Shown here: piece by piece, positions 20,974 to 34,922 of the stretch
Position numbering within the stretch: position 1 is the first letter of the stretch
How the letters are laid out: each line of letters opens with the position of its first letter
Assembly: GCA_021371915.1 (NCBI GenBank)
Contig: JAJFVG010000144.1
Location: forward strand, 28,328 to 92,327
Direction: 5' to 3'
Source of the DNA: Nitrospiraceae bacterium
GTDB lineage: Bacteria; Nitrospirota; Thermodesulfovibrionia; Thermodesulfovibrionales; Dissulfurispiraceae
DNA: 64,000 bases
The notes under the pieces: generated by a model
What the model saw: only the letters and a program-made list of their open reading frames with translations
What the model was told of the DNA's origin: nothing
Databases searched by the model: none
Position numbers and translations under genes: made by a program

Positions 20974-20974
<1 letters not shown>
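18341..20974 (-). CDS. DHH/DHHA1 phosphoesterase - tandem CBS - class II nucleotidyltransferase (CCA-adding / poly(A) polymerase family) fusion protein
   Basis: 877 aa. The N-terminus has DHH-family motifs (HLNADFDALAS, DHHP, GGGGH). A CBS pair sits in the middle. The C-terminal half has YLVGGSVRDMLRG...DIDIVV, RRDFTINTLA and an HD-less tRNA-NT tail. Confidence 0.85.
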
Positions 20975-21327
<353 letters not shown>

Positions 21328-22311
21328 TCATTGCTTTTTAAAGGGGCTCAGGCTTGAAAATTCAAATAGAGTGGACATGGCCTTGCTGTCTGTGGATATG
21401 CCGGACTCCTCAAGCATTGCCACAGGGTTGAGCCCTCCGACTATCACCACGCCCACCTTGTCCGTACTGACAGGAACCTCAAAGACAGGCCTGTTGGGTT
21501 CTCCGATATGCAGAACTCCGTTGATGCCTTTTTCTTTCATCTTTTTTGCCAAATCTTTTGCCTGCTTTAGACATACTATCGGAATCTCCCTGTAGCTTGC
21601 GAGCACCCTGCCGTTGCCATCCTTTACAGCGCCGGCAACATCCGTCATCTTGCTCCTTATGAATACTTCAAGCGGATCGAGCGACGAACCTTCATAACTT
21701 ATAAGCGAAAGGAATCTTCTGGGCGCGCCGTTTTGTATTTCGAGAACTCCTCCGAACCTAGAAGCAACCGGAATGCCGGCCTTCAGGAATATGCCGTTTA
21801 TGGTCACGCTGCATACCGTGCCGATGGCTGCCTTACCCTCAGGTACAATAAAGTCTCCAACAGTCTCTCCGCTGCGCGCGATTATCATTCTGTTGCTCAT
21901 CACATACGGGGTTGAAAAGACCTTTTCCATCAGCTTTATGCATTGAGACAACTTGTCTTCAGGCAGACAGGATATATTGAGTATAACCTTGCCTTTCATT
22001 TCATCCAGATCAATGGTGGTCTGGTATGAATATGCCTCTATCTTGCTTATTACAAAACCGACCTTCTCTGAGACATGCGAATGTTTAAGCTCGTTGCGGC
22101 CTTTTTCAGTGATCTTTCTTCCTTCTTTGCCGAAAACCTCGGTAAGGCCCTTCTCATCGAGAAACTTCATATGGTATCTGACAGTTCTCTCGGTAAGGTC
22201 TATCCCGTGCATCTTGAGCTCCTTGGATATCTCTCCTGAGCCGATAATATCCGTGTGCTTGTCAAGCACCTTGAGGATGGCCAGCATTGTTTTGTTCATT
22301 TTTGTTTTCAT
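21328..22311 (-). CDS. nrpR: NrpR-type (DUF128) nitrogen regulatory repressor: winged HTH plus one NrpR domain
   Basis: LAILKVLDKHTDIIGSGEISKELKMHGIDLTERTVRYHMKFLDEKGLTE... is the characteristic NrpR N-terminus, followed by a single NrpR regulatory domain. I prefer the start at MKTKMNK (22311) over 22338, which lies inside a palindrome. Confidence 0.8.
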   Translation of the reverse strand: MKTKMNKTMLAILKVLDKHTDIIGSGEISKELKMHGIDLTERTVRYHMKFLDEKGLTEVFGKEGRKITEKGRNELKHSHVSEKVGFVISKIEAYSYQTTIDLDEMKGKVILNISCLPEDKLSQCIKLMEKVFSTPYVMSNRMIIARSGETVGDFIVPEGKAAIGTVCSVTINGIFLKAGIPVASRFGGVLEIQNGAPRRFLSLISYEGSSLDPLEVFIRSKMTDVAGAVKDGNGRVLASYREIPIVCLKQAKDLAKKMKEKGINGVLHIGEPNRPVFEVPVSTDKVGVVIVGGLNPVAMLEESGISTDSKAMSTLFEFSSLSPFKKQ

Positions 22312-22330
22312 ACCCCATTCAGTACCGTGC

Positions 22331-22352
22331 GGGGGCATGTTAACATGCCCCC
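22331..22352. promoter_or_regulatory. perfect 22-nt palindrome GGGGGCATGTTAACATGCCCCC between gdhA and nrpR
   Basis: Read directly from the sequence: 9-bp arms with a TTAA centre. It sits 20 nt upstream of the preferred nrpR start and 100 nt downstream of the gdhA stop. No T-run follows it on the minus strand. Confidence 0.4.
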
Positions 22353-22452
22353 GTAGCGCATACCATTATTGAAGTGTAACAGAATTCTTTCTGCTTCTTC
22401 TACAACGCAGTTAATACCATGCCGCCTCTTTATAGGGGGCGGACCGTTGTTA

Positions 22453-23802
22453 CTATATAATGCCCTGACTGATCATTGCCTCAGCCACCTTTACAAAGCC
22501 GCCCACATTGGCGCCGTTAACATAGCTCACGCTGCCATCAGGCCGTTTGCCGTATTTAAGGCATGTGTTGTGAATGCCCTTCATTATCTTGAGCAGCTGT
22601 GCGTCTACCTCTTCTCTTGTCCATGAAAGACGCATAGCATTTTGGCTCATCTCCAGGCCTGAGGTTGCCACTCCACCGGCATTGCTTGCCTTGCCAGGTG
22701 CATAAAGCACCTTCTTCTGCTCAAACACTTTTACAGCACCCTCTGTTGAAGGCATGTTGGCCCCTTCGCTAATGCAGAAGACACCGTTTTTGACGAGCAT
22801 GGCTGCGTCATTTTCATCAAGCTCGTTCTGTGTAGCGCATGGCAACGCAACATCAACCGGCACGTTCCATGGCTTTACGCCTGGCAGGAACTTTGCCTTC
22901 ACTTTTTCCGCATATTCGTTGACTCTGCCGTAGTGGACATTCTTCACATCCATAAGAACAGCGAGTTTTTCAGGAGTAAAACCATCCTCATCCACAACAG
23001 TTCCGCTGGAGTCAGAAACCGTGACAACCTTGGCACCCAGTGACATAGCCTTTTCAACAGCATACTGAGCAACATTTCCCGATCCTGATACGGAAACCCT
23101 GAGCCCGTCAAATGAGCGGCCAGCTGTCTTGAGCATCTCGTCAGCAAAATATACAACACCGTAGCCGGTAGCCTCAGGCCTTATCAGTGAACCGCCGAAC
23201 GCAAGGCCTTTACCTGTGAACACGCAGTCTGCCTTGTTTGAGAGTTTTTTCATCATTCCAGCCATAAAGCCAACCTCTCTGCCGCCTACTCCGATATCGC
23301 CTGCTGGAACGTCAGTGTCAGAACCGACATGTCTGAACAGTTCACTTACGAATGCCTGGCAAAAACGCATCACCTCTCCGGGGCTGCAACCCTTTGGATC
23401 AAAATCAGAACCTCCCTTGCCGCCGCCCATTGGAAGTGTTGTCAGAGAATTCTTCAATGTCTGTTCAAATGCGAGAAACTTGAGAATAGAAAGGTTGACC
23501 GTGGGGTGAAAGCGGATACCGCCCTTGTAAGGGCCTATTGCTGAGCTGTGCTGTATCCTGTATCCCTTGTTAACCCTGACTGTTCCATGATCATCAACCC
23601 ATGACACGCGAAACATTATAACGCGCTCAGGCTCAACCAAACGTTCAAGCAGGCCATGCTCTGCATAACGCGGATTATCTGATATGAAAGACCAGAGGCT
23701 CTCCATTACCTCATTAACAGCCTGCAAAAACTCAGACTGTCCTGGATTTCGTTTTGCAACATACTCCATAAATTCACAAAGATTCTTGTGTTTCATTGTC
23801 AT
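22453..23802 (-). CDS. gdhA: NADP-specific glutamate dehydrogenase
   Basis: 449 aa. The catalytic-Lys region LPMGGGKGGSDFDPKG and the nucleotide-binding region VSGSGNVAQYA are present. GGGAG RBS. Confidence 0.95.
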   Translation of the reverse strand: MTMKHKNLCEFMEYVAKRNPGQSEFLQAVNEVMESLWSFISDNPRYAEHGLLERLVEPERVIMFRVSWVDDHGTVRVNKGYRIQHSSAIGPYKGGIRFHPTVNLSILKFLAFEQTLKNSLTTLPMGGGKGGSDFDPKGCSPGEVMRFCQAFVSELFRHVGSDTDVPAGDIGVGGREVGFMAGMMKKLSNKADCVFTGKGLAFGGSLIRPEATGYGVVYFADEMLKTAGRSFDGLRVSVSGSGNVAQYAVEKAMSLGAKVVTVSDSSGTVVDEDGFTPEKLAVLMDVKNVHYGRVNEYAEKVKAKFLPGVKPWNVPVDVALPCATQNELDENDAAMLVKNGVFCISEGANMPSTEGAVKVFEQKKVLYAPGKASNAGGVATSGLEMSQNAMRLSWTREEVDAQLLKIMKGIHNTCLKYGKRPDGSVSYVNGANVGGFVKVAEAMISQGII

Positions 23803-24093
23803 CTCCCTTTTGTTTTTTTGTTGCTTACAAATAATGAATTCATATCATTATTAATTAATAGACAGTGTGGCCACCTCCTTGCATTTCAGTATTCTTAATC
23901 TCAAGATCAGTATTGTTTAAGCGTAAAGCAAAAAAAATCTTTGCTTTACAAGCTATTCGCTGCACTTTTAATATTAGGCATGGATTCAACGGCAAAGCAT
24001 AGCCATCGATAAAAGACAGCATAGCATAGCATATTTATTAAAAATTCAATAGGAAAATTATAAATACTGAATTCCGGCTGGAATTCAAACAAA

Positions 24094-24123
24094 CATGGCG
24101 GCGGGCCTAGGCCCGCCGCCATG
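24094..24123 (-). terminator. GC-rich hairpin terminator downstream of the GltS-FMN paralogue
   Basis: CATGGCGGCGGGCC-TA-GGCCCGCCGCCATG. On the minus strand it is followed by TTTGTTTG. Confidence 0.6.
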
Positions 24124-24148
24124 TAGTGACTTGCAAAAAATCAGATAC

Positions 24149-25744
24149 CTATTTTGCGTTGAGAACCTTTATGGCCTCTTTTCTGTACGAATCCATCAGA
24201 TATGGTATGCCGGTCACTTTTGCGCACTCCTCCGTGAGAGACATGATCTCATTTCTTGTTATGGATTCAATGTTAAAGCACCTTGCACCAGCCATGAGCT
24301 GCTGGAGGCCAACCTTTATCTTCTGCGAATAGCTGTATATGCCTATCGCGCCCAAAGGAATGTTTTTGATCTCCTTGTTGCCGACTATATTTTTTACATC
24401 TTCATAGTTGACGAATATCTCCTCAACCGTTGAGCCGAACTCGCTCACGGTCTTTGGAAGGTCGTTCTCCTTCATCCACTTGTCAATGTTCTTACCGACC
24501 ATGCCGGGTATCATCAATGCGCGGCCCATGCATACAGCCTTTGTGAAAGGAGCGCCGAGGGAAAGGGCCTTGAATACACCGTCTTCACTGCTGAATCCGC
24601 CTGCAAAGGCTATGTCAGGAACACGCTGTTTCTTCTTTGCAAGTATGGCGCAGAACTCTGCTGCTGCTGCATGCAGATAGAGAGAAGGCATGCCCCACTC
24701 TTCCATCATTCTCCATGGGCTCATGCCTGTTCCGCCGGGTGCGCCATCGATTGTAAGAAGGTCGATCTTTGCCTTTGAGCTCCACTTTATCGCCATTGCA
24801 AGCTCTCTGAGTCCGTATGCGCCGGTCTTAAGCGTTACTCTCTTGAAGCCGAGCTTTCTTAGTCTGTTGACCTCTGCGTAAAAACCCTGCTCATCCACAA
24901 AGCCGAGCCTGCTGTGGCGCTCAAACTCCTTTATCGCTCCATCCTTGAACGCTGCCTGCACAACAGGATCAGAAGGATCGGGTGTTACTATGTATCCGCG
25001 CCTCTGAAGCTCAAGCGCGCGTTCGAGAGAATTTACCTTTATCTCTCCGCCAATGCACTTTGCGCCCTGTCCCCATTTGAGCTCTATGGTGTCTATTTTG
25101 TGTTTGTCGATAATGTACTCTGCAACACCGAGTCTTGTGTCCTCAACATTCATCTGCACGAGTATCTCGCCATAGCCCTGGTGATAGCGGCGGTACTCCT
25201 CTATTCTCCTGTCCATGTCAGGGGCCTTGACGATCTTGTTCTTGCTGTTGAGTTCGAGCTTCGGGTCTATGCCACATACATTCTCACCGCATACTATTGT
25301 TACGCCTGATATGGCTGCACCCACTGCAAAGTGCTCCCAGTTTTTTCTTGCGATCTCTGTTGAGCCGAGTGCGCCTGTGAATATCGGGGCCTTCATCTTC
25401 ACTTTCTTGGTCCAGCCGTATTCAGTCTCTGTGTTCACATTCGGAAATGTAGCTGTGTCAGGCGATGCCTTTGTGCCCTTTGGAAGTCCCTTTGCGCCCA
25501 TTGCATAGCCATGAATGTTGAGATGAGAATAATCAACCGGATAGTCCTTGTCTCCGCCTGCGGTTATCTCTCCGAACGGACCCGGATAGATAACCTCTCT
25601 GCCCCTGAAAGTTGCCTTGAAGACTTCGCAGTTTCCACGGCATCCGTCAATACAGCGTGTGCAGAGTCCGCTCATCGGCGCCACGTTTCTTGAGCGGTTG
25701 CTTGTCTTTGTTGCATCGTTTGCGTTTGGTCTTTGCAGATTCAT
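24149..25744 (-). CDS. glutamate synthase-related FMN-binding domain protein (stand-alone GltB domain-2 paralogue)
   Basis: 531 aa. N-terminal Cys cluster CTRCIDGCRGNC, then a TIM-barrel GltS FMN domain (ELKWGQGAKCIGGEIK, IDGAPGGTGMSP, FAGGFSSEDGVFKALSLGA). Confidence 0.85.
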   Translation of the reverse strand: MNLQRPNANDATKTSNRSRNVAPMSGLCTRCIDGCRGNCEVFKATFRGREVIYPGPFGEITAGGDKDYPVDYSHLNIHGYAMGAKGLPKGTKASPDTATFPNVNTETEYGWTKKVKMKAPIFTGALGSTEIARKNWEHFAVGAAISGVTIVCGENVCGIDPKLELNSKNKIVKAPDMDRRIEEYRRYHQGYGEILVQMNVEDTRLGVAEYIIDKHKIDTIELKWGQGAKCIGGEIKVNSLERALELQRRGYIVTPDPSDPVVQAAFKDGAIKEFERHSRLGFVDEQGFYAEVNRLRKLGFKRVTLKTGAYGLRELAMAIKWSSKAKIDLLTIDGAPGGTGMSPWRMMEEWGMPSLYLHAAAAEFCAILAKKKQRVPDIAFAGGFSSEDGVFKALSLGAPFTKAVCMGRALMIPGMVGKNIDKWMKENDLPKTVSEFGSTVEEIFVNYEDVKNIVGNKEIKNIPLGAIGIYSYSQKIKVGLQQLMAGARCFNIESITRNEIMSLTEECAKVTGIPYLMDSYRKEAIKVLNAK

Positions 25745-25837
25745 AAATCCTCCCTGAAATTTTTAATTAAAACTTGCAATACACCTCGTCATCTCTTGAA
25801 ATCCTCTATACCCGCACCTCCCCAGGATCAGCATTAG

Positions 25838-25851
25838 CAACAATATTGTTG
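25838..25851. promoter_or_regulatory. perfect 14-bp palindrome CAACAATATTGTTG, a candidate operator
   Basis: Seen directly. It is 26 nt downstream of the regulator gene stop and about 95-105 nt upstream of the GltS-FMN paralogue ATG. Confidence 0.3.
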
Positions 25852-25876
25852 TGAAAAACTGGTCGTTTGATTGCTT

Positions 25877-27142
25877 TTAGGTCCCGCTCCACGCAACAAG
25901 AAGCCGTGCCTCGACACCACCGGTCTCCCAGCGCGATGGGAAGATCGACCTGAAATTCAATGCATCGCCGCTTTTGAGTTTTTCAAGCCTGCCGTCTGCT
26001 GTAACCGATATCTCGCCGTCAAGGATATATATAGCCTCTTCTGCCTTGTTGTTGAAGAAATGTTTTGTGATACTGGTGTTTGGAGATATCACAACCACTC
26101 TTAAAGAGAGCTTTGGGCTGTTCACAACCGAATATATTTTCAGCCCCTGCTGCTCCACTACAGGCTGCTCAAAAATAGTCTCGCGCATCAAAAGCCAATC
26201 CTGCGCAGCACTCAGATGGTCGTTATCAAATAACTGGCCCGGCTTCAACCCAAGCGCGCTGCATATCTGAATGAGAGAATTTAATGACGGGCTTATCTGG
26301 TTGTTCTCGATCTGCGAAATAAAGCTAGGCGTAAATCCAACCTTGTCAGCCAGCTCTTTCTGGCTTATTCCGAGCCTCGTTCTTGCGGCCTTGAGCCTGT
26401 GGCCTATATCAGTGGCAGCCTCTTTTCTGAGCTGAGAAAAGAGCACGTTATTGCCTTCGATTTCGTACACATGCGGCCTGAAGGCCTCGCGGTCAGGCCT
26501 CCTTGCAAGCTTCAGAGCCTTGATGTAAAAACATTCCTTGCGCCTGTAAAGATCAAAAACAACCTGTGTTATATGACGAAGATTTGCCTTGAACTTCTGG
26601 CTGTGCGCGTCCTTTTCCAGTATCCAGTAGGCCACGGTATTTAAATCAAAAAGCCGGGGACACATATATGTGAAAAACTGGTATGTATCATTCTCATTGC
26701 CCCAAAGATTCTGCATACCTGTAAGGCTATCAAAAACATACCTGGCCCCTGGCAGCAGACTGTCCTCAATTTCATTAAGCGCTTTGGTGAACTGCTCGAT
26801 GTCTGCAGGGTTTTCTATCAGAATGCGCTTGTAATCAGCAGGCTGGTTGTAGAACTTGAGGAACTCCGGATCGTTTCTGCCTTTTCCCGATGTGAAGCAG
26901 TCTATGAATATAAAGTGCTCAGGATCGAGAAAAGCGTTTAACTCATTAACAATGCTCTGGGGGGATCTGTTAAAGCTTACATATATAACCTTTTGGGCGT
27001 CATCGATTGATTTCTTGATAAAACTTCTTATAAACAGCTCATGAGAAGTGCCGGCATCAACCTCCCATACCACATTGTCTCCAATGTAGAGGAAATCTAT
27101 CAGACTATCGAGTCCGTTTATGCCTGAGGATATCTTTTGCAT
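25877..27142 (-). CDS. three-domain regulator: degenerate KaiC/RecA-like domain, XRE HTH and cupin
   Basis: The N-terminus follows the KaiC-like pattern (SSGINGLDSLI...VIYVSF...RYVFDSLTGM...ALKLARRP), but Walker A is replaced by VDAGTSHE with no Lys. The middle is an XRE HTH (LGISQKELADKVGFTPSFISQIENNQISPSLNSLIQICSALG). The C-terminus is a cupin beta-barrel. Confidence 0.75.
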   Translation of the reverse strand: MQKISSGINGLDSLIDFLYIGDNVVWEVDAGTSHELFIRSFIKKSIDDAQKVIYVSFNRSPQSIVNELNAFLDPEHFIFIDCFTSGKGRNDPEFLKFYNQPADYKRILIENPADIEQFTKALNEIEDSLLPGARYVFDSLTGMQNLWGNENDTYQFFTYMCPRLFDLNTVAYWILEKDAHSQKFKANLRHITQVVFDLYRRKECFYIKALKLARRPDREAFRPHVYEIEGNNVLFSQLRKEAATDIGHRLKAARTRLGISQKELADKVGFTPSFISQIENNQISPSLNSLIQICSALGLKPGQLFDNDHLSAAQDWLLMRETIFEQPVVEQQGLKIYSVVNSPKLSLRVVVISPNTSITKHFFNNKAEEAIYILDGEISVTADGRLEKLKSGDALNFRSIFPSRWETGGVEARLLVAWSGT

Positions 27143-27186
27143 GGCAATCGGTTACCTTATGTATAAGAACTTTAGCTAACCAGCAG

Positions 27187-27202
27187 TTTCTTTGTCAAGA
27201 AA
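27187..27202 (-). promoter_or_regulatory. inverted repeat TTTCTT-N4-AAGAAA centred on a TTGACA -35 box of the regulator gene promoter
   Basis: Minus strand reads TTTCTTGACAAAGAAA. TTGACA is at 27193-27198, with TAAAGT 18 nt downstream and the ATG at 27142. Confidence 0.35.
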
Positions 27203-27322
27203 GATCAGACAGGACGAATGCAAGACACAAACAAACGGGAATATTACTTTTATTTCAATGCGTTAATGCTTGCCATTTTTTTATTAGTAAATATAATTCA
27301 GGAATGCTAAACAGAAATTCTA

Positions 27323-27352
27323 TTGACAATTTAGCGGGTCAAACCTTATATT
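27323..27352 (+). promoter_or_regulatory. candidate sigma70 promoter of the split glutamate synthase operon
   Basis: TTGACA (27323-27328), a 17/18 nt spacer, then TATATT (27347-27352). An ~120 nt leader follows, starting with the hairpin GACGGCAA-ACGG-TTGCCGTC (27359-27378). Confidence 0.5.
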
Positions 27353-27478
27353 TAAATTGACGGCAAACGGTTGCCGTCGAAAGTCTGGGTTGCAGGACAA
27401 GGACAGGCAAAACCACTTCTGTAACAGGAAGACGCTCAGCATAAATGAGCAATAATAATCATGTGAGGTATTGATTTT

Positions 27479-28588
27479 ATGTGCAGACTGGCGGCAATAA
27501 CATCAAACAAGTACTTCTCTCCGATGGAGAACATACTTGCGCTCGAGACAATGAAAGAGGGGCACGACGGCTCCGGCCTCGGACTTGTGCTGAAAGACCT
27601 AGGCGGAGAGTTCGAGGAGCTGAAACAGTACCCCATCCTCTCCGGCATCTGCACAGGCAACGGCGTTAGCATGCTTGATCAATTCATGGAAGCACAGGGC
27701 TTCAAGCTAATGCATGTATGGACGCCGGCCACAAAACCGGTTGCAGGCATAACACCGCGCGGCCACTACTTCGCAAAGGTGTATGACTACCCTGTGCACT
27801 TCAGGCGTAGGAACCAGGCCGAGAAAGATACTCTGCTGCTAAACACACGCCTTGCGCTCAGGGAGCTAGGTGAAAAGGACGGTTCGATATTCGTCTTTTC
27901 ATTCTATCCTGATGTAATTTCACTCAAAGAGGTCGGCGACCCTCTGCAGGTGGGAGAGTTCTTCAGCCTGGACAAGGATATTGTAAAGGCAAAAATAGTG
28001 CTGGCGCAGGGCAGGCAGAACACGAACTATGCAATATACCTGTACGCGTGTCATCCGTTCTTTCTGCAGGGCTACTGCACAATGACAAATGGGGAGAACA
28101 CGGCATTCGTGCCCATTCGTGAATTTCTCCTGAGCAGGAACTTCCCCGGCTATACAGGATACAACAGCGACAGTGAGGTCTTTGCGCATATTCTTCACTA
28201 TACAACAAGACAGCTCGGCTATCCGCTCACATACTACAAGGATGTGATAACTCCTTTGAAAAATGCCGAGATGGATAACAGGCCCGACAAAGAGGCGCTG
28301 CTGCTTATAAAGCAGTCTCTCAGACCGCTCTGCATAGACGGCCCGAACTGTGTAATAGGATTCACTCCTGAAGGCTCATGCTTCATGCTTCAGGACTCGA
28401 AAAAGCTCAGGCCCGGGGTAGTGGGCGGGGTAAAAGGCAAATACGCGCTCATGTCAGAAGAGTGCGGGGTGAACAGGGTAATACCGGACAGGGACAGATC
28501 CACTGACATATTCCCGATGAAATACGACATGGTTATTGTCAAGCCGCAGGCAGAGGAGGTGCAGGTATGGAACCAGCTTCAGGGATAA
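27479..28588 (+). CDS. glutamate synthase, class II glutamine amidotransferase domain subunit (archaeal-type GltB domain 1)
   Basis: MCRLAAI: an Ntn-type catalytic Cys directly after the Met. GATase-2 fold pattern. GAGG RBS. Confidence 0.85.
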   Translation: MCRLAAITSNKYFSPMENILALETMKEGHDGSGLGLVLKDLGGEFEELKQYPILSGICTGNGVSMLDQFMEAQGFKLMHVWTPATKPVAGITPRGHYFAKVYDYPVHFRRRNQAEKDTLLLNTRLALRELGEKDGSIFVFSFYPDVISLKEVGDPLQVGEFFSLDKDIVKAKIVLAQGRQNTNYAIYLYACHPFFLQGYCTMTNGENTAFVPIREFLLSRNFPGYTGYNSDSEVFAHILHYTTRQLGYPLTYYKDVITPLKNAEMDNRPDKEALLLIKQSLRPLCIDGPNCVIGFTPEGSCFMLQDSKKLRPGVVGGVKGKYALMSEECGVNRVIPDRDRSTDIFPMKYDMVIVKPQAEEVQVWNQLQG

Positions 28589-30231
28589 GGCTAGACCATA
28601 ATCATCAGCTTACATTAAAGGAATTTCCATATATAATCCGCTGGAGCGACGACAGGTGCAAAAGGTGCGGCAGATGCACTTCAGTATGCCCTGTAAAAGC
28701 GATCGTGCCAACAGTAAGGGTGCAGAGATCTGTTGTGTCTGAAGGCCCGCTGCCAGGCCCATCCTCCACGCGCAAAGTCGTGCAGGTTGTTGAGCAGGTG
28801 ACAGACATGGAGCGCTACTGCACAGGCTGTGCAATGTGCAGCCTTGTATGCCCCAATGAAGCAATAACTCCGGAATTCAATCCGAACAATAAATTTCTTC
28901 ACTACAAGAACAAGGGCGGAGACGGATACAAGCGTGGCGGCAGAAGAAACGACCCTTCGATATCCACACTCGACAAGCTCAAATTCACCAGGATATCCAT
29001 GCTCACAGACCCAGCACTCGATGCAGCGCGCCATGAGTTCAGGATACGCACACTGCTGGGCAGAATAATGCCGCCTGAAAAACTTCCCATGAAGCTGGTT
29101 GACGGCAGGCTCGTTGTTGACAAGACAGCAGTATTCATACCTCCTGTTCGCGAGATATACCCGATAATGATCGGCAGCATGTCTGTAGGCGCGCTCTCGC
29201 CCCCCATGTGGGAAGGCCTCGCAATGGGAGTCGCTTACCTTAATGAGGTTGAGGGCATGCCGGTTGTAATGTGCTCTGGCGAAGGAGGAATGCCTCCTGC
29301 ATTGCTCAGGTCAAAATACCTCAAATATTTTATCATCCAGATAGCGTCCGGCTACTTCGGTTGGGATGAGATCATACACGCTCTTCCGCACATGGTCGAA
29401 GACCCTGCTGCGATAGAGATCAAATACGGACAGGGAGCAAAACCCGGAGACGGCGGACTGCTCATGGCGCAGAAGGTGCTAAAGCTCATCGCAAAGATTC
29501 GCGGTGTGCCGCAGTTTGTTGACCTGTCATCACCTCCAACGCACCAGACAAAGTATTCGATAGAAGAGGCTGTTGCAAAGATGATCCAGTCCATGTCAAT
29601 GGCATGGGGATTCAGGGTGCCAGTGTATCCGAAGATATCCGGCACAAAGACAGCCCGCGCTGTGCTGAACAATCTTGCGAGGAATCCGTACGCAGCAGCG
29701 CTCTCGATAGATGGAGAGGATGGCGGCACAGGCGCTGCTTACAATGTCTCAATGGACAAGATGGGACACCCTATCGCATCCAACCTGCGCGAGTGTTATC
29801 TCGACCTGGTCAAGCAGGGTAAACAGAATGAACTGCCTCTGATCGCAGCGGGCGGTGTAGGCAAAAAAGGAAACCTCGCTGCAAATGCAGCAGCGCTCAT
29901 TATGCTGGGCGCATCAGCCGTATCGATAGGCAAATACATAATGCAGGCAGCAGCAGACTGCCTCGGTGATGAGAACAACCGCTGCAACATATGCAACACA
30001 GGCAAATGTCCGCGCGGCATAACAACGCAGGACCCCAAGCTCTACAGGAGACTCGACTCGGACAAGGTTGCCGAGAGAGTCGTGGATGTATTCAAGGCAG
30101 CTGATGTTGAACTCAAAAAGATATTCGCTCCTATGGGCAGAAGCACAGAACTGCCGATCGGTATGTCAGACGGATTGAGTGTAGATGACAAGTCAATTTC
30201 TGAAAGGCTGGGTATAAGCTATGTGTGCTAA
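28567..30231 (+). CDS. glutamate synthase FMN-binding domain subunit with an N-terminal 2x[4Fe-4S] ferredoxin module
   Basis: CKRCGRCTSVCP and CTGCAMCSLVCP, followed by the GltS FMN domain (IEIKYGQGAKPGDGG, IDGEDGGTGAA, IAAGGVGKKGN). Confidence 0.9.
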   Translation: MEPASGIRLDHNHQLTLKEFPYIIRWSDDRCKRCGRCTSVCPVKAIVPTVRVQRSVVSEGPLPGPSSTRKVVQVVEQVTDMERYCTGCAMCSLVCPNEAITPEFNPNNKFLHYKNKGGDGYKRGGRRNDPSISTLDKLKFTRISMLTDPALDAARHEFRIRTLLGRIMPPEKLPMKLVDGRLVVDKTAVFIPPVREIYPIMIGSMSVGALSPPMWEGLAMGVAYLNEVEGMPVVMCSGEGGMPPALLRSKYLKYFIIQIASGYFGWDEIIHALPHMVEDPAAIEIKYGQGAKPGDGGLLMAQKVLKLIAKIRGVPQFVDLSSPPTHQTKYSIEEAVAKMIQSMSMAWGFRVPVYPKISGTKTARAVLNNLARNPYAAALSIDGEDGGTGAAYNVSMDKMGHPIASNLRECYLDLVKQGKQNELPLIAAGGVGKKGNLAANAAALIMLGASAVSIGKYIMQAAADCLGDENNRCNICNTGKCPRGITTQDPKLYRRLDSDKVAERVVDVFKAADVELKKIFAPMGRSTELPIGMSDGLSVDDKSISERLGISYVC

Positions 30232-32599
30232 AAGACCGGAAAACAGAAGTAATAACACAGATAACAGTATGGAACAGGTACTGACCATACTTGGCACTGT
30301 GAACAATGAGCGCGTGCCTTCGCGCGTGCTCGAAGAGCAGATACAGCAGGCAGTATCAGAAGGCGCAAGAAAGCTGAAGATAGTTGCTGACGGACAGCAC
30401 GGCATAGGCGGCAGGATATGGCCAAAAGGCGAGACCATCTCTATTGAGGTCGAAGGCGCAGCAGGCCAGAGGCTCGGCAGCATGGGAATGCCAGGCACAG
30501 AGATCGTTGTAAACGGCAACGCATCTGATGATGTTGGCTGGCTCAACTGCGGAGCGAATATCACTGTGCTTGGAGACGTGACAAACGGCGCTTTTAATGC
30601 AGCAGCGCAGGGCATCCTTTATGTGCAGGGAAGCGGAGGCGCGCGCTGCGACACAATGACAAAACAGAATCCGCGCTTTGATCCTCCACAGTCATGGTAT
30701 CTGCGTGATGTTGGCGACTCATTTGCTGAGTTCAAGGCCGGAGGCATAGCGGTTGTATGCGGAGTCAATCCACGCAATCCTGAAAACATACTCGGTTACA
30801 GGCCGTGCGTAGGCATGGTTGGCGGCACTATATATTTCAGGGGCCCGATACAGAATTACAGCCAGAGAGATGTTCAACTGCTCGACATAAGTGAGCAGGA
30901 CTGGGAATGGCTCAAGAACGGACTCGAAAAGTTCCTTACCGCTGTAAACAAAAAAGAACATTATACTGAACTTATAAAATCAGCATCAGACTGGAAAAAG
31001 CTGGTTGCATACACGCCAAAAGAAAAAGCAGCCAGAAGAAAGACGCATATGCCGCTTTCTGAATTCAGAAAGACAGTATGGGAAAAAGAGGTTGGCAATG
31101 GCGGCATATTCGCGGAATACCTTGATCATGATCTCACCCTGCTGCCGTATGTAACAACAGGCACGGACAGAAGAAATGCCCCTGTATGGGCAAATGAAAA
31201 GTTCGCGCCTCCGTGCGCGTACGCCTGCCCCACCCTGATACCTTCTCACAAGAGGGCATCGCTCATAAGACAGGGCAGGCTCACAGAAGCGCTGGAGCTT
31301 GTTCTTCAGTACAGCCCTCTGCCTGCAACAGTGTGCGGAGAGATATGCCCGAATCTCTGCATGCAGAGCTGCACAAGAAGACACATCGACACACCGCTCG
31401 CCATTGACAGACTCGGCAGCCTCGCGCTCGAATTGCCTGCTCCAAAAAAAGCTCCGGCAACTAACCACAGGGTTGCTGTTATCGGTGGCGGACCAGCAGG
31501 CATGTCAGCAGCATGGCAGCTCGCGCTCAAGGGACACATTGTTGATCTCTATGAAGAGACGGACAGGCTTGGCGGCAAGATTGAGCTCTGCATACCAAGG
31601 GAGCGGCTGCCGCATGAGATACTCGAAAAGGAAGTATCCAGGTTCAGCGAACTCGGCGTGAATCTGCATCTGAACACAAAAGTGGATAAGCAGAAGTTCG
31701 AAGACATATACAAAAACCACGAGGTTGTTATCGTGGCTTGCGGAGCGCACAAGCCACGGAATATACCATTTGCAGGATCAGAACATACAATATCAGCATA
31801 TGATTTTTTAAGATCAGTAAATGCAGGCAAACATCCTGACCTGAAGGGCAAAAAGGTGGTTGTTATCGGAGCAGGAAATGTGGGCATGGATGTATGCTCA
31901 GAGGCCTATAACTACGGAGCTGAATCAGTAACAGCAATAGACATACAGAAGCCTGCTGCATTCGGCGCTGAAATGGAGATCGCAAAGGCCAAGGGCACGC
32001 AGGTCGTATGGCCTAAATTTACTGACCATTACGACTCTGAAAAAAGAAAGCTCGTTTTTAAAGACAATACTGAAATGGATGCTGATGCTGTGATAATGTC
32101 GATCGGCGACACACCGCAGCTCGACTTCCTGCTACCGTCAGTCCATACGGAAAGGGGCTGGATAAAAGTTGATCCGAACACATTCCAGACATCAGACGTC
32201 AAGGTCTATGCAGTGGGTGATGCCACAAGCCTCGGCCTTATAACTCATGCGATCGGACAGGCTAGACTCGCTGCTGAAGAGGTGCACTATCTTATGAGCC
32301 ATGCACCGAGGCAGCCCGAGACAAAAATGCAGATACCGTACGAACGGATCAAGTCTGAATACTACGAGATATGCAAGCAGGACTTCTCGCCCGAGGTAGA
32401 GGGCAACAAATGCATGTCATGCGGCACATGCCGTGACTGCCACATGTGCGAAGCGACCTGCTACTGGGGCGCGATCAGCAGAATCGAGCACAAGGACGGG
32501 TCATATGAATATGTAGTTGATGACGACAAATGCATTGGCTGCGGCTTCTGCGCAGGCATATGTCCATGCGGCGTATGGGAGATGCAAGAGAATATTTAA
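30221..32599 (+). CDS. fusion of GltB C-terminal GXGXG domain with a GltD-like NAD(P)H oxidoreductase and a C-terminal 2x[4Fe-4S] ferredoxin
   Basis: The GXGXG beta-helix region ([38 protein letters not shown]) comes first. Then the GltD Fe-S region (CPTLIPSH...[13 protein letters not shown]) and FAD/NAD folds ([26 protein letters not shown]). The end has [10 protein letters not shown] and [12 protein letters not shown]. The start could also be MEQV at 30269. Confidence 0.85.
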
Positions 32600-32680: not shown

Positions 32681-32757
<77 letters not shown>

Positions 32758-32796
32758 TTAAAATAGAAAACACCAAATCAAGCGGCAGGAGTCCTT

Positions 32797-33333
32797 ATGC
32801 TCAAAAAGATTGAAAACGCTATCGAGTTTATTTTGTGGGAAACCAGACTGGTAATATTCTTTGCAGTTATCGCTAGTATCTTTTCATCAATAATGCTCGT
32901 TGCCATAGGCTGCTATGATGTTTATCTGGTTGCTGAAGAGGCCTTTCACGCATTCCAGAGCAAAGAAGCATATGAACTGTTTCACAAGGAATCCATCACC
33001 CACATCATAAGCGCCATAGACTCTTACCTTATCGCAACAGTGCTGCTCATCTTCGGCATCGGGCTTTACGAGCTTTTCATCAGCAAGATCGAGCGGGCTG
33101 AAAGAGACACCAGGTCATCAAAGATACTTGTCATCCACACACTCGACCAGCTGAAAGAGAAACTGGCCAAGGTTATAATCATGGTGCTGATCGTCACCTT
33201 TTTCAAATACGCGGTCAACTTCAAATACGACTCCGCACTCACACTGCTGTATCTTGGCATAGGCATACTGCTTGTAACACTCTCGGTATACTTCATGGGC
33301 AAGGGACACGACTCCAAAGAAAAGGATCACTGA
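32797..33333 (+). CDS. yqhA: YqhA (UPF0114) family membrane protein
   Basis: KKIENAIEFILWETRLVIFFAVIASIF and ~3-4 TM helices are typical of the UPF0114 family. AGGAG RBS. Confidence 0.75.
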   Translation: MLKKIENAIEFILWETRLVIFFAVIASIFSSIMLVAIGCYDVYLVAEEAFHAFQSKEAYELFHKESITHIISAIDSYLIATVLLIFGIGLYELFISKIERAERDTRSSKILVIHTLDQLKEKLAKVIIMVLIVTFFKYAVNFKYDSALTLLYLGIGILLVTLSVYFMGKGHDSKEKDH

Positions 33334-33396
33334 CAAGCTTTCAAAGGCATGATCATTTTTATTCATTTGTGCTAAAATATTTGACGTTTTTTCATA

Positions 33397-33473
33397 GCCC
33401 CCTTAGCTCAGTCGGATAGAGCACAGGTTTCCTAAACCTGGGGCCAGAGGTTCGAATCCTCTAGGGGGCACCA
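33397..33473 (+). tRNA. tRNA-Arg (anticodon CCT)
   Basis: Acceptor GCCCCCT/AGGGGGC, D arm GCTC/GAGC, anticodon stem CAGGT/ACCTG with loop TTCCTAA, T arm AGAGG/CCTCT with TTCGAAT. Discriminator A and an encoded CCA. Confidence 0.9.
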
Positions 33474-33606
33474 TTTACCTCATTGCTTTCAATCTTTCAA
33501 TAACAAACAACCACACAATGCAGTCCATTCCTTCTCGCTCGATTTGACAAGCCATTATTGATCCGATATGCTGAGTTATAAACTACCCGCCTTAGAGGAG
33601 GTTGCC

Positions 33607-34527
33607 ATGAAAACCTTTCTTAGCTTGATGATTCTCATATTTTTAACCTTTAGCCCATGTCTTGTTTCAGCAGACATGTGCAGCGGCAGGGGTGTTGAGC
33701 TTCAGGTACTGGGCTCCGGCGGGCCTGAAGTGCAGGACAAACGTGCTTCAACAAGCTACCTGATCTGGATTGACGGCAAGGCACGCGTCTTAATTGACAG
33801 CGGTGGTGGAAGCGAGCTGAGGTTTGGCGAAGCAGGCGCGTGGATGAAGGATCTTTATCTGGTATTATTCACGCATATACATGTTGACCACACAGCCGGA
33901 TTTGCGGCTTTGGTTAAATCTTCTTTTTTTGAAAACCGTACTGAACCATTGCCTGTGCTTGGACCAACAGGAAATAAAATATTCCCGCCTACAACCGGCT
34001 TTATCCTGGGGCTTTTCAGCAAGGAGAAGGGCATTTACAGATACCTTAGCGAATACCTTACCGGAGGAAAATATTCATACGCGATCAAGCCGCGCAATAT
34101 AGACATAGGCAATAGGAGTATTACAGAAGTGTTCTCCGGCAACGGGATCAAAGTATTTGCACTGCCAGTAATTCATGGCGTTGTACCCAACATTGCATAC
34201 AAAGTGATGGCAGGAGGCTATACGATCGCCTTCACATCCGACACAAACGGCGAAAACAGACATCTTCCAACCCTGGCACAAAACTCGGATATACTCGTAG
34301 CGCATAACGCGGTGCCTGAAGATGCGGAAGGAGATGAAAGAAGTCTGCATATGCCTCCCTCGGTTATCGGCAAAATAGCGGAAGCCTCAAAGACAAAAAA
34401 ACTTATATTGTCGCACAGAATGCTTCGCACGCTCGGTAAGGAAGAGCAGACCATGAAATTCATCTCTGACTTCTACAAGGGCGACAAGGTATTTGCGAAT
34501 GATCTGGATTGCTACAGCCTGAAATAG
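33607..34527 (+). CDS. secreted MBL-fold metallo-hydrolase
   Basis: Signal peptide MKTFLSLMILIFLTFSPCLVSA and the HxHxDH motif THIHVDHTAG. GGAGG lies 6 nt before the ATG at 33607. Confidence 0.8.
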   Translation: MKTFLSLMILIFLTFSPCLVSADMCSGRGVELQVLGSGGPEVQDKRASTSYLIWIDGKARVLIDSGGGSELRFGEAGAWMKDLYLVLFTHIHVDHTAGFAALVKSSFFENRTEPLPVLGPTGNKIFPPTTGFILGLFSKEKGIYRYLSEYLTGGKYSYAIKPRNIDIGNRSITEVFSGNGIKVFALPVIHGVVPNIAYKVMAGGYTIAFTSDTNGENRHLPTLAQNSDILVAHNAVPEDAEGDERSLHMPPSVIGKIAEASKTKKLILSHRMLRTLGKEEQTMKFISDFYKGDKVFANDLDCYSLK

Positions 34528-34568
34528 GGTTCTTTATTCTTACAAAACATACTGACCGGGAGGTTTAT

Positions 34569-34922
34569 ATGGAAACACCAAGGACAGAGATTGAAGAACT
34601 CAAAAGAATGCTGGGAAAAAACGAAAAGGTCCTTGTAGTGGATGTGCGCCAGCCTGCTTCTTATGCTGAGAGCGATAAAATGATAGCCGGAGCCATCTAC
34701 ATCGATCCTGGCAACGATGAAGCTCTCAACGAATTTGCAAAGCAGCACAATACTGATGAACGCATAGTCTTTTACTGATCCTGACGCGACGAGCACACAA
34801 GCGCCCGTGCGGCTGCTAAACTTATCGAAAAAGGCTTCACAAATGTCTCTGCGCTAAAGGGTGGATGGGGAGCATGGCGCATAGCAGGATATCCGACAAA
34901 GAGCAAGCAGCAGAACAATTAA
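34569..34922 (+). CDS. single-domain rhodanese sulfurtransferase with two in-frame TGA codons (candidate Sec-x-Sec selenoprotein)
   Basis: GGGAGG RBS. One continuous frame reads ...VLVVDVRQPASY...DERIVFY-TGA-S-TGA-RDEHTSARAAAKLIEKGFTNVSALKGGWGAWRIAGYP...TAA. The segment after the TGAs stays in the same frame and completes the rhodanese fold. The TGAs are at 34776-34778 and 34782-34784. Confidence 0.65.

Follow-up and report, generated by a model that had tools for sequence, protein, structure and literature searches.

A 64,000-nucleotide (nt) stretch of contig JAJFVG010000144.1, from a Nitrospiraceae metagenome-assembled genome (MAG), contains a rhodanese gene in which two UGA codons, separated by a single sense codon, occur in frame at the active-site loop; the whole of this stretch is referred to below as the window. 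We consider it likely that both UGA codons are read as selenocysteine (Sec; U in motifs), that the product is a cytoplasmic 117-residue rhodanese of the LYCAU family, and that one downstream hairpin serves both recoding events. Direct support for this reading is provided by the reading frame, the location of both UGAs on cysteine (Cys) columns, their deep conservation, the purifying selection acting downstream of them and the covariation in the hairpin. From these data we infer that Sec rather than another amino acid enters at each UGA, that a single hairpin acts on both, and which catalytic roles the two residues play. The gene and its elements, with the evidence for each, are the following.

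34569-34922, forward strand: coding sequence (CDS) of a 117-residue single-domain rhodanese of the NF041203 'rhodanese_LYCAU' family (frame, PF00581, NF041203, dN/dS)
34558-34563, forward strand: Shine-Dalgarno-like GGGAGG, 5 nt 5' of the ATG (read from the sequence)
34776-34778, forward strand: UGA1, codon 70, predicted Sec at the position of the canonical rhodanese catalytic Cys (aligns with Cys of homologues)
34782-34784, forward strand: UGA2, codon 72, predicted family-wide Sec of the C-x-U / LYCAU motif (TGA in 61/61 Sec-type homologues)
34800-34817, forward strand: hairpin resembling a selenocysteine insertion sequence (SECIS), within the CDS and encoding S-A-R-A-A-A (minimum free energy (MFE) fold, covariation, comparison with Cys/Ser-type homologues)
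34806-34810, forward strand: apical loop CGUGC, in which G34807 and U34808 presumably contact SelB (loop conservation in 61 sequences)

A single frame of 117 codons runs from the ATG at 34569 to the TAA at 34920-34922, and its only interruptions are the TGA triplets at 34776 and 34782, exactly as a preliminary description of this DNA had read it. The mechanical list of open reading frames (ORFs) ended the gene at 34778, and the corresponding GenBank entry is a 69-residue hypothetical protein (P0001, locus tag LLF86_08910, Nitrospiraceae bacterium MAG). The full translation reads ...DERIVFY-U-S-U-RDEHTSARAAAKLIEKGFTNVSALKGGWGAWRIAGYPTKSKQQNN before the TAA, with the active-site loop FY-U-S-U-RDEHTSA. 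Because the orthologues start at the same residue (MDVPR.../METPR...), the ATG at 34569 was preferred over an upstream TTG at 34509; the resulting protein has no signal peptide. Two antisense ORFs, of 94 codons (34512-34796, reverse strand) and 48 codons (34772-34918, reverse strand), overlap the rhodanese gene and most likely reflect the truncated annotation and do not represent genes.

Conservation of the UGA codons in a rhodanese family

With Cys placeholders at both UGA positions, the window protein matches the Pfam Rhodanese profile PF00581 with E=3.5e-17 and 63.1 bits (cutoff 22.2), residues 9-104 covering profile positions 3-100 of 102. Under the same convention it scores 117.9 bits (E=2.1e-34) against the NCBIfam model NF041203, "rhodanese_LYCAU, rhodanese-related (seleno)protein", for which the curated cutoff is 115; the preliminary description had counted rhodanese-related sulfurtransferases among Sec-containing families, and this is one that is already catalogued. 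Among the relatives, L002 obtains 118.1 bits with the same model, whereas L001 (114.7) and L005 (113.2) fall just under the cutoff. When compared with the L-Y-C-A-U motif that names the family, the F-Y-U-S-U of the window protein agrees at the second active-site position and departs from it at the first, where a UGA stands in place of a Cys codon. By its NF041203 score the protein is thus a variant of this family, and by its motif not a typical member.

The Cys-type relatives recovered by a word-indexed protein search share the loop YCACPNExTSA, and both TGAs of the window gene fall on its Cys columns, as had been supposed for the two positions of the C-x-C motif. The counterpart of UGA2 in homologues that lack Sec is Cys, Ser or Asp. 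The closest solved structure is 6mxv (E=1.2e-17), in which the catalytic Cys that starts the loop aligns with codon 70 (FYCGG--GFRSA vs FYcscrdehtSA). UGA2 would therefore represent the known Sec of the NF041203 family, and UGA1 appears to replace the canonical catalytic Cys. In two reviews (PMC13188914, PMC9312934), the LYCAU family appears among the predicted selenoproteins, its motif being C-x-U with a single Sec; the term UxU is absent from the 2026 review (PMC13188914), where this family has a single Sec.

Homologues were collected by scanning species-representative genomes and metagenomes, the latter with a four-sequence alignment (A3) as the query. The resulting set comprises 61 distinct Sec-type sequences, of which 58 form a gapless alignment of 75 nt beginning at the first-position codon (A4) and three are U-x-U sequences added to it. 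The second-position TGA is present in 61/61 of these sequences, which come from Nitrospirota, Acidobacteriota (L005), Chloroflexota (L006, L007) and many metagenomes, and it is typically the sole in-frame stop in the homologues obtained from both scans. The first-position TGA was found in six distinct Nitrospirota-type genes with 50-65% mutual identity, namely those of the window, L001, L003, L094, L095/L096 and L097, whereas the other family members examined, apart from the Desulfobacterota fusions described below, possess TGY at this position. The two sites had initially been treated alike; they do both occupy Cys columns, but the second is family-wide and the first TGA is an addition specific to a clade. 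L094, L095/L096 and L097 were retrieved by searching for ORFs that end in "...FY", and L095 (NCBI, GCA_034002665.1) and L096 (Logan) are two assemblies of one gene. L001 is syntenic and 65% identical to the window gene; L095 shares with the window the order of a UPF0114 gene, the rhodanese gene and a convergent PAS histidine kinase gene, followed further along by SAICAR synthase and a biotin carboxylase subunit.

In a neighbour-joining tree, every full-length U-x-U gene falls in one clade, inside which a C-x-U subclade is nested (L002, L028, L030, L033, L034). According to this topology, the U-x-U motif was probably gained once, is ancestral in the Nitrospirota clade, and reverted once to C-x-U. 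The ratio of nonsynonymous to synonymous substitution rates (dN/dS) downstream of both UGAs is 0.06 between the window and L001 (dS ~1.0), 0.12 between the window and L003, and 0.05 between L003 and L002, with a range of 0.05-0.22 across the orthologues. Such low values imply that ribosomes must pass both codons and that this has long been maintained; the conservation supposed for the region downstream of 34784 is thereby borne out by the comparison with L001. The preliminary description had also favoured recoding over chance nonsense mutations, and the orthologues indeed have the same TGAs without random stops or frameshifts. The occurrence of TGA-NNN-TGA at the same codons of independent assemblies, together with downstream conservation, is far beyond chance.

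Several side observations concern the same loop. The base immediately 5' of UGA2 (34781 in the window, column 6 of A4) is C in 57/61 members, whichever residue occupies the x position (Ala, Thr, Ser or Asp), and may reflect a codon-context requirement for Sec insertion. One family member of 139 residues, P0019, has Trp at the Sec position (YCAWPYEKTS), and since UGG is one base from UGA, a Sec-to-Trp replacement is possible. Tandem pairs of paralogous C-x-U rhodanese genes were observed in L037 (motifs at 1213 and 1679), L041, L044 (2697 and 3190), L050, L052, L055 and L056; they combine the YCAU[GRT]DEATS and YCDUPNEQTS types, and each gene has its own signal peptide and SECIS hairpin.

The U-x-U motif extends to a second lineage, the Desulfobacterota. 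When P0023, a more distant ORF cut at "...YVLY", was used as the query, 200 protein clusters were obtained, and 120/120 among the matches listed stop after one and the same Tyr. U-x-U rhodaneses that are fused to a multihaem cytochrome and cut at this Tyr make up at least 120 protein clusters (90% identity). In the DNA of L098-L105 (e.g., L099 8001-9617, L100 3044-4660 and L103 8001-9620; also L098, L101, L102, L104 and L105), TGA-GCC-TGA is followed by a frame that continues through the rhodanese C-terminus into an HAO-like cytochrome of ~400 residues with eight CxxCH motifs, its nearest structures in the PDB being 6h5l and 4n4j. The conceptual product is a secreted protein of ~539 residues composed of a signal peptide, the U-x-U rhodanese (YVLY-U-A-U-P) and the cytochrome, which gene callers split into a 'rhodanese' of 96 residues and a cytochrome of 379 residues. 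Its rhodanese part scores 143.3 bits against NF041203. The strong hairpin GCCGCCC-GGG-GGGCGGU (-15.8 kcal/mol) occurs there at the family position, with a UGA distance identical to that in the window. An MliC gene and an MsrA-MsrB fusion gene lie downstream.

One and the same fusion protein in L071 (3001-4521) and L076 carries C-x-U (YCAUPSEETSAR), so the exchange of Cys and Sec at the first position also occurred within the fusion clade. The U-x-U motif is thus common in Desulfobacterota, where it arose independently of the Nitrospirota clade. Together with a report of U-x-U from 2007 (PMC1976440), this makes the double-Sec arrangement less unprecedented than first supposed. The multihaem selenoenzyme MccSep, described in 2026, was considered as the identity of the fusion and rejected, as it has five haems, lacks a rhodanese domain and belongs to another family. 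No published description of the rhodanese-cytochrome fusion was found.

The hairpin downstream of the UGA codons

The hairpin starts 15 nt past UGA2 and 21 nt past UGA1, and the G and U of its loop lie at +26/+27 from UGA2 and +32/+33 from UGA1. Its upper stem pairs G34803-C34805 with G34811-C34813, U34814 is bulged, and the lower stem pairs A34800-C34802 with G34815-U34817, giving an MFE of -6.7 kcal/mol. A stem-loop had been predicted at this place; it does exist there, it covaries, and it is mostly absent from Cys/Ser-type genes, but its register is AGC-GCC/CGUGC/GGC-(U)-GCU rather than the AGCGC/CCGU/GC(G)GCU first proposed. In A4, a hairpin is found in the same columns of every sequence (core helix in columns 26-30/36-40, loop in columns 31-35), 15-16 nt separating UGA2 from the stem.

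The helix was tested for compensatory change over columns 24-30/36-42, in which 80% of the cells are paired and double changes occur in six of the seven pairs. At 0.255, the covariation score exceeds the 0.129 of shuffled alignments and was reached by 0/500 shuffles, and controls in which the helix was slid along the alignment gave 0.01-0.13. Most informative is pair 27-39, which is C:G in 28 and U:A in 24 of the 58 sequences (28 and 26, respectively, among the 61). Its two bases are third positions of a Ser AGY and an Ala GCN codon, and the covariation is thus synonymous: among the 53 sequences that use both codon types, U:A was observed 26 times, C:G 20 times and the U:G wobble once, with six mismatches. 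Loop column 32 is G in 61/61 sequences although its codon may encode Arg, Ser, Gly, Trp or Cys, and column 33 is U in 51 and G in 10 of them. Among six Cys/Ser-type homologues, the hairpin is missing in five, and the mean energy is -2.0 kcal/mol over all six vs -9.7 kcal/mol in the 58 Sec-type sequences. Taken over the family, the pattern points to a hairpin upheld by compensatory change beyond the needs of the protein sequence.

It should be noted that all six C-A or C-U mismatches at pair 27-39 belong to the Nitrospirota clade (34802/34814 in the window; L001, L002, L028, L030, L095). Hairpins of this clade are also systematically shorter and bulged, at -5 to -8 kcal/mol compared to the family mean of -9.7 kcal/mol.

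Other RNA structures were considered and rejected. An RNAalifold consensus of six U-x-U sequences placed a hairpin with its start at UGA2 (CGCGAYGAGC...GCCCGUGCG), which was dismissed because its covariation term is unfavourable (+1.58), and also because it excludes the family hairpin and lacks the G-U loop. A pairing of UGA-NCC-UGA with a downstream GGNUUCA (the G-F-T codons), suggested by single MFE folds, was recovered by neither RNAalifold run. No second structure specific to UGA1 was found, the alternative folds having no covariation support. An Rfam scan of the 64-kb window at gathering thresholds detected two tRNAs and no SECIS family, a result that is uninformative on SECIS.

The best-studied bacterial element for comparison is the SECIS of E. 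coli fdhF, with its 11-nt spacing and G23/U24 in the loop (PMC8659212). Similar to it, the window element is a stem-loop within the coding sequence just downstream of a UGA, with G and U of the apical loop as the conserved determinant. It differs in having 5-6 base pairs (bp) where the fdhF element spans 40 nt, in lacking the 5' bulged U, and in facing two UGAs; in its spacing and in the positions of its loop bases it likewise departs from the fdhF geometry (11 nt, G23/U24, bulged U17). On comparative grounds, the window element would function like a SECIS without the fdhF geometry.

Decoding of the UGA codons

In the explanation that we favour, with Sec at both positions, SelB carrying Sec-tRNA(Sec) would be recruited by the single GC-rich hairpin at 34800-34817 through its CGUGC loop. 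Given the general extent of the ribosome footprint, the hairpin would still be folded outside the ribosomal mRNA entrance with either UGA in the A site, and could in this way be used twice within two codons. Judging from the rhodanese fold and from the C-x-C/C-x-U/U-x-U series, the nucleophile would be residue 70, to which the sulfane sulfur or selenium is bound during transfer, and its neighbour at position 72 may act as a resolving or relay chalcogen, forming a selenylsulfide in the C-x-U proteins and a diselenide in the U-x-U protein. Thiosulfate:cyanide sulfurtransferase activity should not be assumed for this protein, because of its longer loop, the invariant Glu and the second chalcogen. 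The same geometry in the independent fusion clade suggests that a single hairpin facing two UGAs 6 nt apart is a repeatable solution.

A number of observations speak against Sec at both codons. The window hairpin is among the weakest in the family, and in the family register it contains a C27-U39 mismatch that is rescued only by the bulge. For segments of 50-71 nt around the two UGAs, folding is not superior to that of shuffled sequences (z = -0.27 and +0.21); single-sequence thermodynamics would not support a SECIS alone, whereas the comparative data did. UGA1 at least would have to be read at a non-canonical distance (+32/+33 vs G23/U24 in fdhF). The 64-kb window contains no selA, selB, selC, selD or tRNA-Sec by our search and no second TGA-interrupted gene, and no tRNA-Sec was found in 60 related loci. 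Since the sel genes are not within the 64 kb, we can only infer the Sec competence of the source genome. Complete sets of selA, selB, selC and selD are documented for Nitrospirae/Thermodesulfovibrio genomes (PMC5389517; PMC13188914), and the Sec-type MccSep occurs in Nitrospirota. Finally, the tRNA(Sec)-like tRNA(Cys) species known from this phylum suggest Cys insertion at a UGA as a minor but live alternative.

This last point leads to a mixed decoding, in which UGA2 would specify Sec and UGA1 either Cys, delivered by a tRNA(Sec)-like tRNA(Cys) with a UCA anticodon via SelB or SelB*, or the residue of a near-cognate tRNA(Trp); the product would then be a C-x-U protein or a Cys/Sec mixture set by the selenium supply. 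We regard it as unlikely, while recognizing several facts in its favour. Such selC* tRNA(Cys) genes, some of them with the opal (UCA) anticodon, exist beside full Sec systems in Thermodesulfovibrio and other Nitrospirae and in Deltaproteobacteria (PMC5389517), the distance of UGA1 from the hairpin exceeds the family-wide optimum by 6 nt, the subclade closest to L003 carries Cys at the first position and demonstrates that Cys works there, and P0019 has Trp at the second (YCAWP). However, UGA1 was kept rather than exchanged for the one-step UGY across dS >1, and independently in the Desulfobacterota fusions, so that the UGA seems to confer something that a Cys codon does not; moreover, selC* was not seen in the window or in the related loci examined. 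A conditional version of this scheme, in which UGA1 is read as Sec when selenium is available and as Cys under selenium limitation or by a tRNA(Sec)-like tRNA(Cys)(UCA), yielding a U-x-U or a C-x-U enzyme, appears rather improbable. If it were true, a minimal bacterial SECIS of 5-6 bp would tolerate UGA distances that differ by at least 6 nt.

Very unlikely, in our view, is the use of UGA1 for selenium-dependent termination or attenuation, whereby scarcity of Sec-tRNA would stop translation at codon 70, releasing a 69-residue fragment, with the second Sec as a regulatory by-product. Two SelB-dependent events two codons apart should be inefficient if the spacing requirement of E. coli applies, and the hairpin is weak in the Nitrospirota clade. 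Yet such a role is compatible with the reading of both UGAs as Sec and does not exclude it, it leaves unexplained why two independent clades have the extra UGA precisely at the column of the catalytic Cys, and a truncated rhodanese without the loop and the C-terminal half has no expected function. A pseudogene, i.e., a former C-x-C rhodanese inactivated by two nonsense mutations, would agree with the GenBank annotation of an N-terminal fragment only and with the lack of Sec machinery in the window, but it is contradicted by the same two TGAs in at least six diverged orthologues with intact frames and downstream dN/dS of 0.05-0.22, the invariant UGA2 in 61/61 sequences, and a downstream hairpin that covaries at synonymous sites. 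Least credible of all is an artefact or an altered code, that is, a sequencing or assembly error, for which one might invoke the metagenomic origin of the genome, or UGA as a sense codon for Trp or Gly. An identical codon pattern was observed in independent assemblies from different samples (L095/L096, L001, L003, L094, L097). TGA is the ordinary stop of 22/57 window ORFs, including full-length P-II, NrpR, AlaDH and histidine kinase genes, several of which have end-to-end Pfam coverage; no other conserved gene in the window has an in-frame TGA, and the two TGAs align with Cys rather than with Trp or Gly.

Genomic context and comparison with known systems

Upstream of the rhodanese gene, the region 32681-34527 of the window contains tRNA-Pro(CGG), a UPF0114 membrane protein gene and tRNA-Arg(CCT), which are syntenic with L001; in L095, UPF0114 likewise precedes the rhodanese gene. 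A gene for an MBL-fold hydrolase with a signal peptide (33568-34527) lies between tRNA-Arg and the rhodanese gene in the window only, not in L001 or L095, and is therefore an insertion rather than a conserved partner. The neighbouring genes in the Nitrospirota clade give no information on the substrate. Further upstream, at 20974-32599, the window holds a nitrogen-metabolism cluster with genes for an NrpR-type repressor (21328-22338), a P-II protein directly following it (20974-21315), glutamate dehydrogenase (22453-23802) and several glutamate-synthase-like subunits (24149-25744, 28567-32599). The NrpR family is known mainly from methanogenic archaea.

In comparison with canonical single-domain rhodaneses (GlpE 1gmx, PspE, 6mxv), the window protein has by sequence the same fold, with residue 70 aligning with the catalytic Cys. 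Its loop is two residues longer (U-S-U-R-D-E-H-T vs C-G-G-G-F-R-S), an invariant Glu is present instead of the usual basic residues, and a second chalcogen is added. With the NF041203 family it shares the domain, the Y-[C/U]-x-U-x-x-E-x-x-S-A loop, the predicted Sec at the second position and a hairpin within the coding sequence at the same distance. It differs from the catalogued form, which has one Sec (C-x-U), in that UGA occurs a second time in the motif, in place of the Cys that is the canonical catalytic residue. In addition, a signal peptide is present in most family members examined and absent from the window clade, and the hairpin stem of the window is shorter (C-U/C-A at pair 27-39).

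Other bacterial proteins with two closely spaced Sec residues are the TsoB rhodanese/DsbD fusion (UxxxxU), the FmdB-family proteins (UxxU) and the Prx-like proteins (UxxU) (PMC13188914, PMC9312934). They likewise have two UGAs a few codons apart in one redox motif, and the spacing in the window gene is the tightest, 6 nt vs 9-15 nt. The match of the window protein to the TsoB profile is weak (33 bits vs a cutoff of 805) and due to the rhodanese domain that both contain.

These comparisons matter in three respects. At least 120 related clusters cut at the same codon would leave a whole group of two-Sec proteins invisible to standard pipelines. Two UGAs 6 nt apart and one small hairpin, long maintained in two independent clades, may serve as a natural experiment on how strictly SelB and the SECIS depend on distance. 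The C-x-C / C-x-U / U-x-U series offers matched natural variants with which the contribution of a vicinal selenylsulfide or diselenide to the transfer of sulfur or selenium could be determined.

The closest precedent comes from the delta-proteobacterial symbionts of Olavius algarvensis, in which a 'rhodanese-related sulfurtransferase' was reported to have evolved a second Sec, giving rise to a UxU motif (Zhang & Gladyshev 2007, NAR 35:4952, PMC1976440). As far as the accessible part of that text goes, it contains no analysis of SECIS covariation, selection or phylogeny of the U-x-U form. From what is described there, the Olavius protein has the same motif and the same gain of Sec from Cys beside an existing Sec; it belongs to Deltaproteobacteria, whereas the clade of the window gene is cytoplasmic and from Nitrospirota. 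It probably corresponds to the Desulfobacterota fusion clade and not to the window clade. The window gene is thus a mis-annotated cytoplasmic addition from Nitrospirota to a known family, and both this family and a U-x-U form of a rhodanese-related sulfurtransferase are already in the literature.

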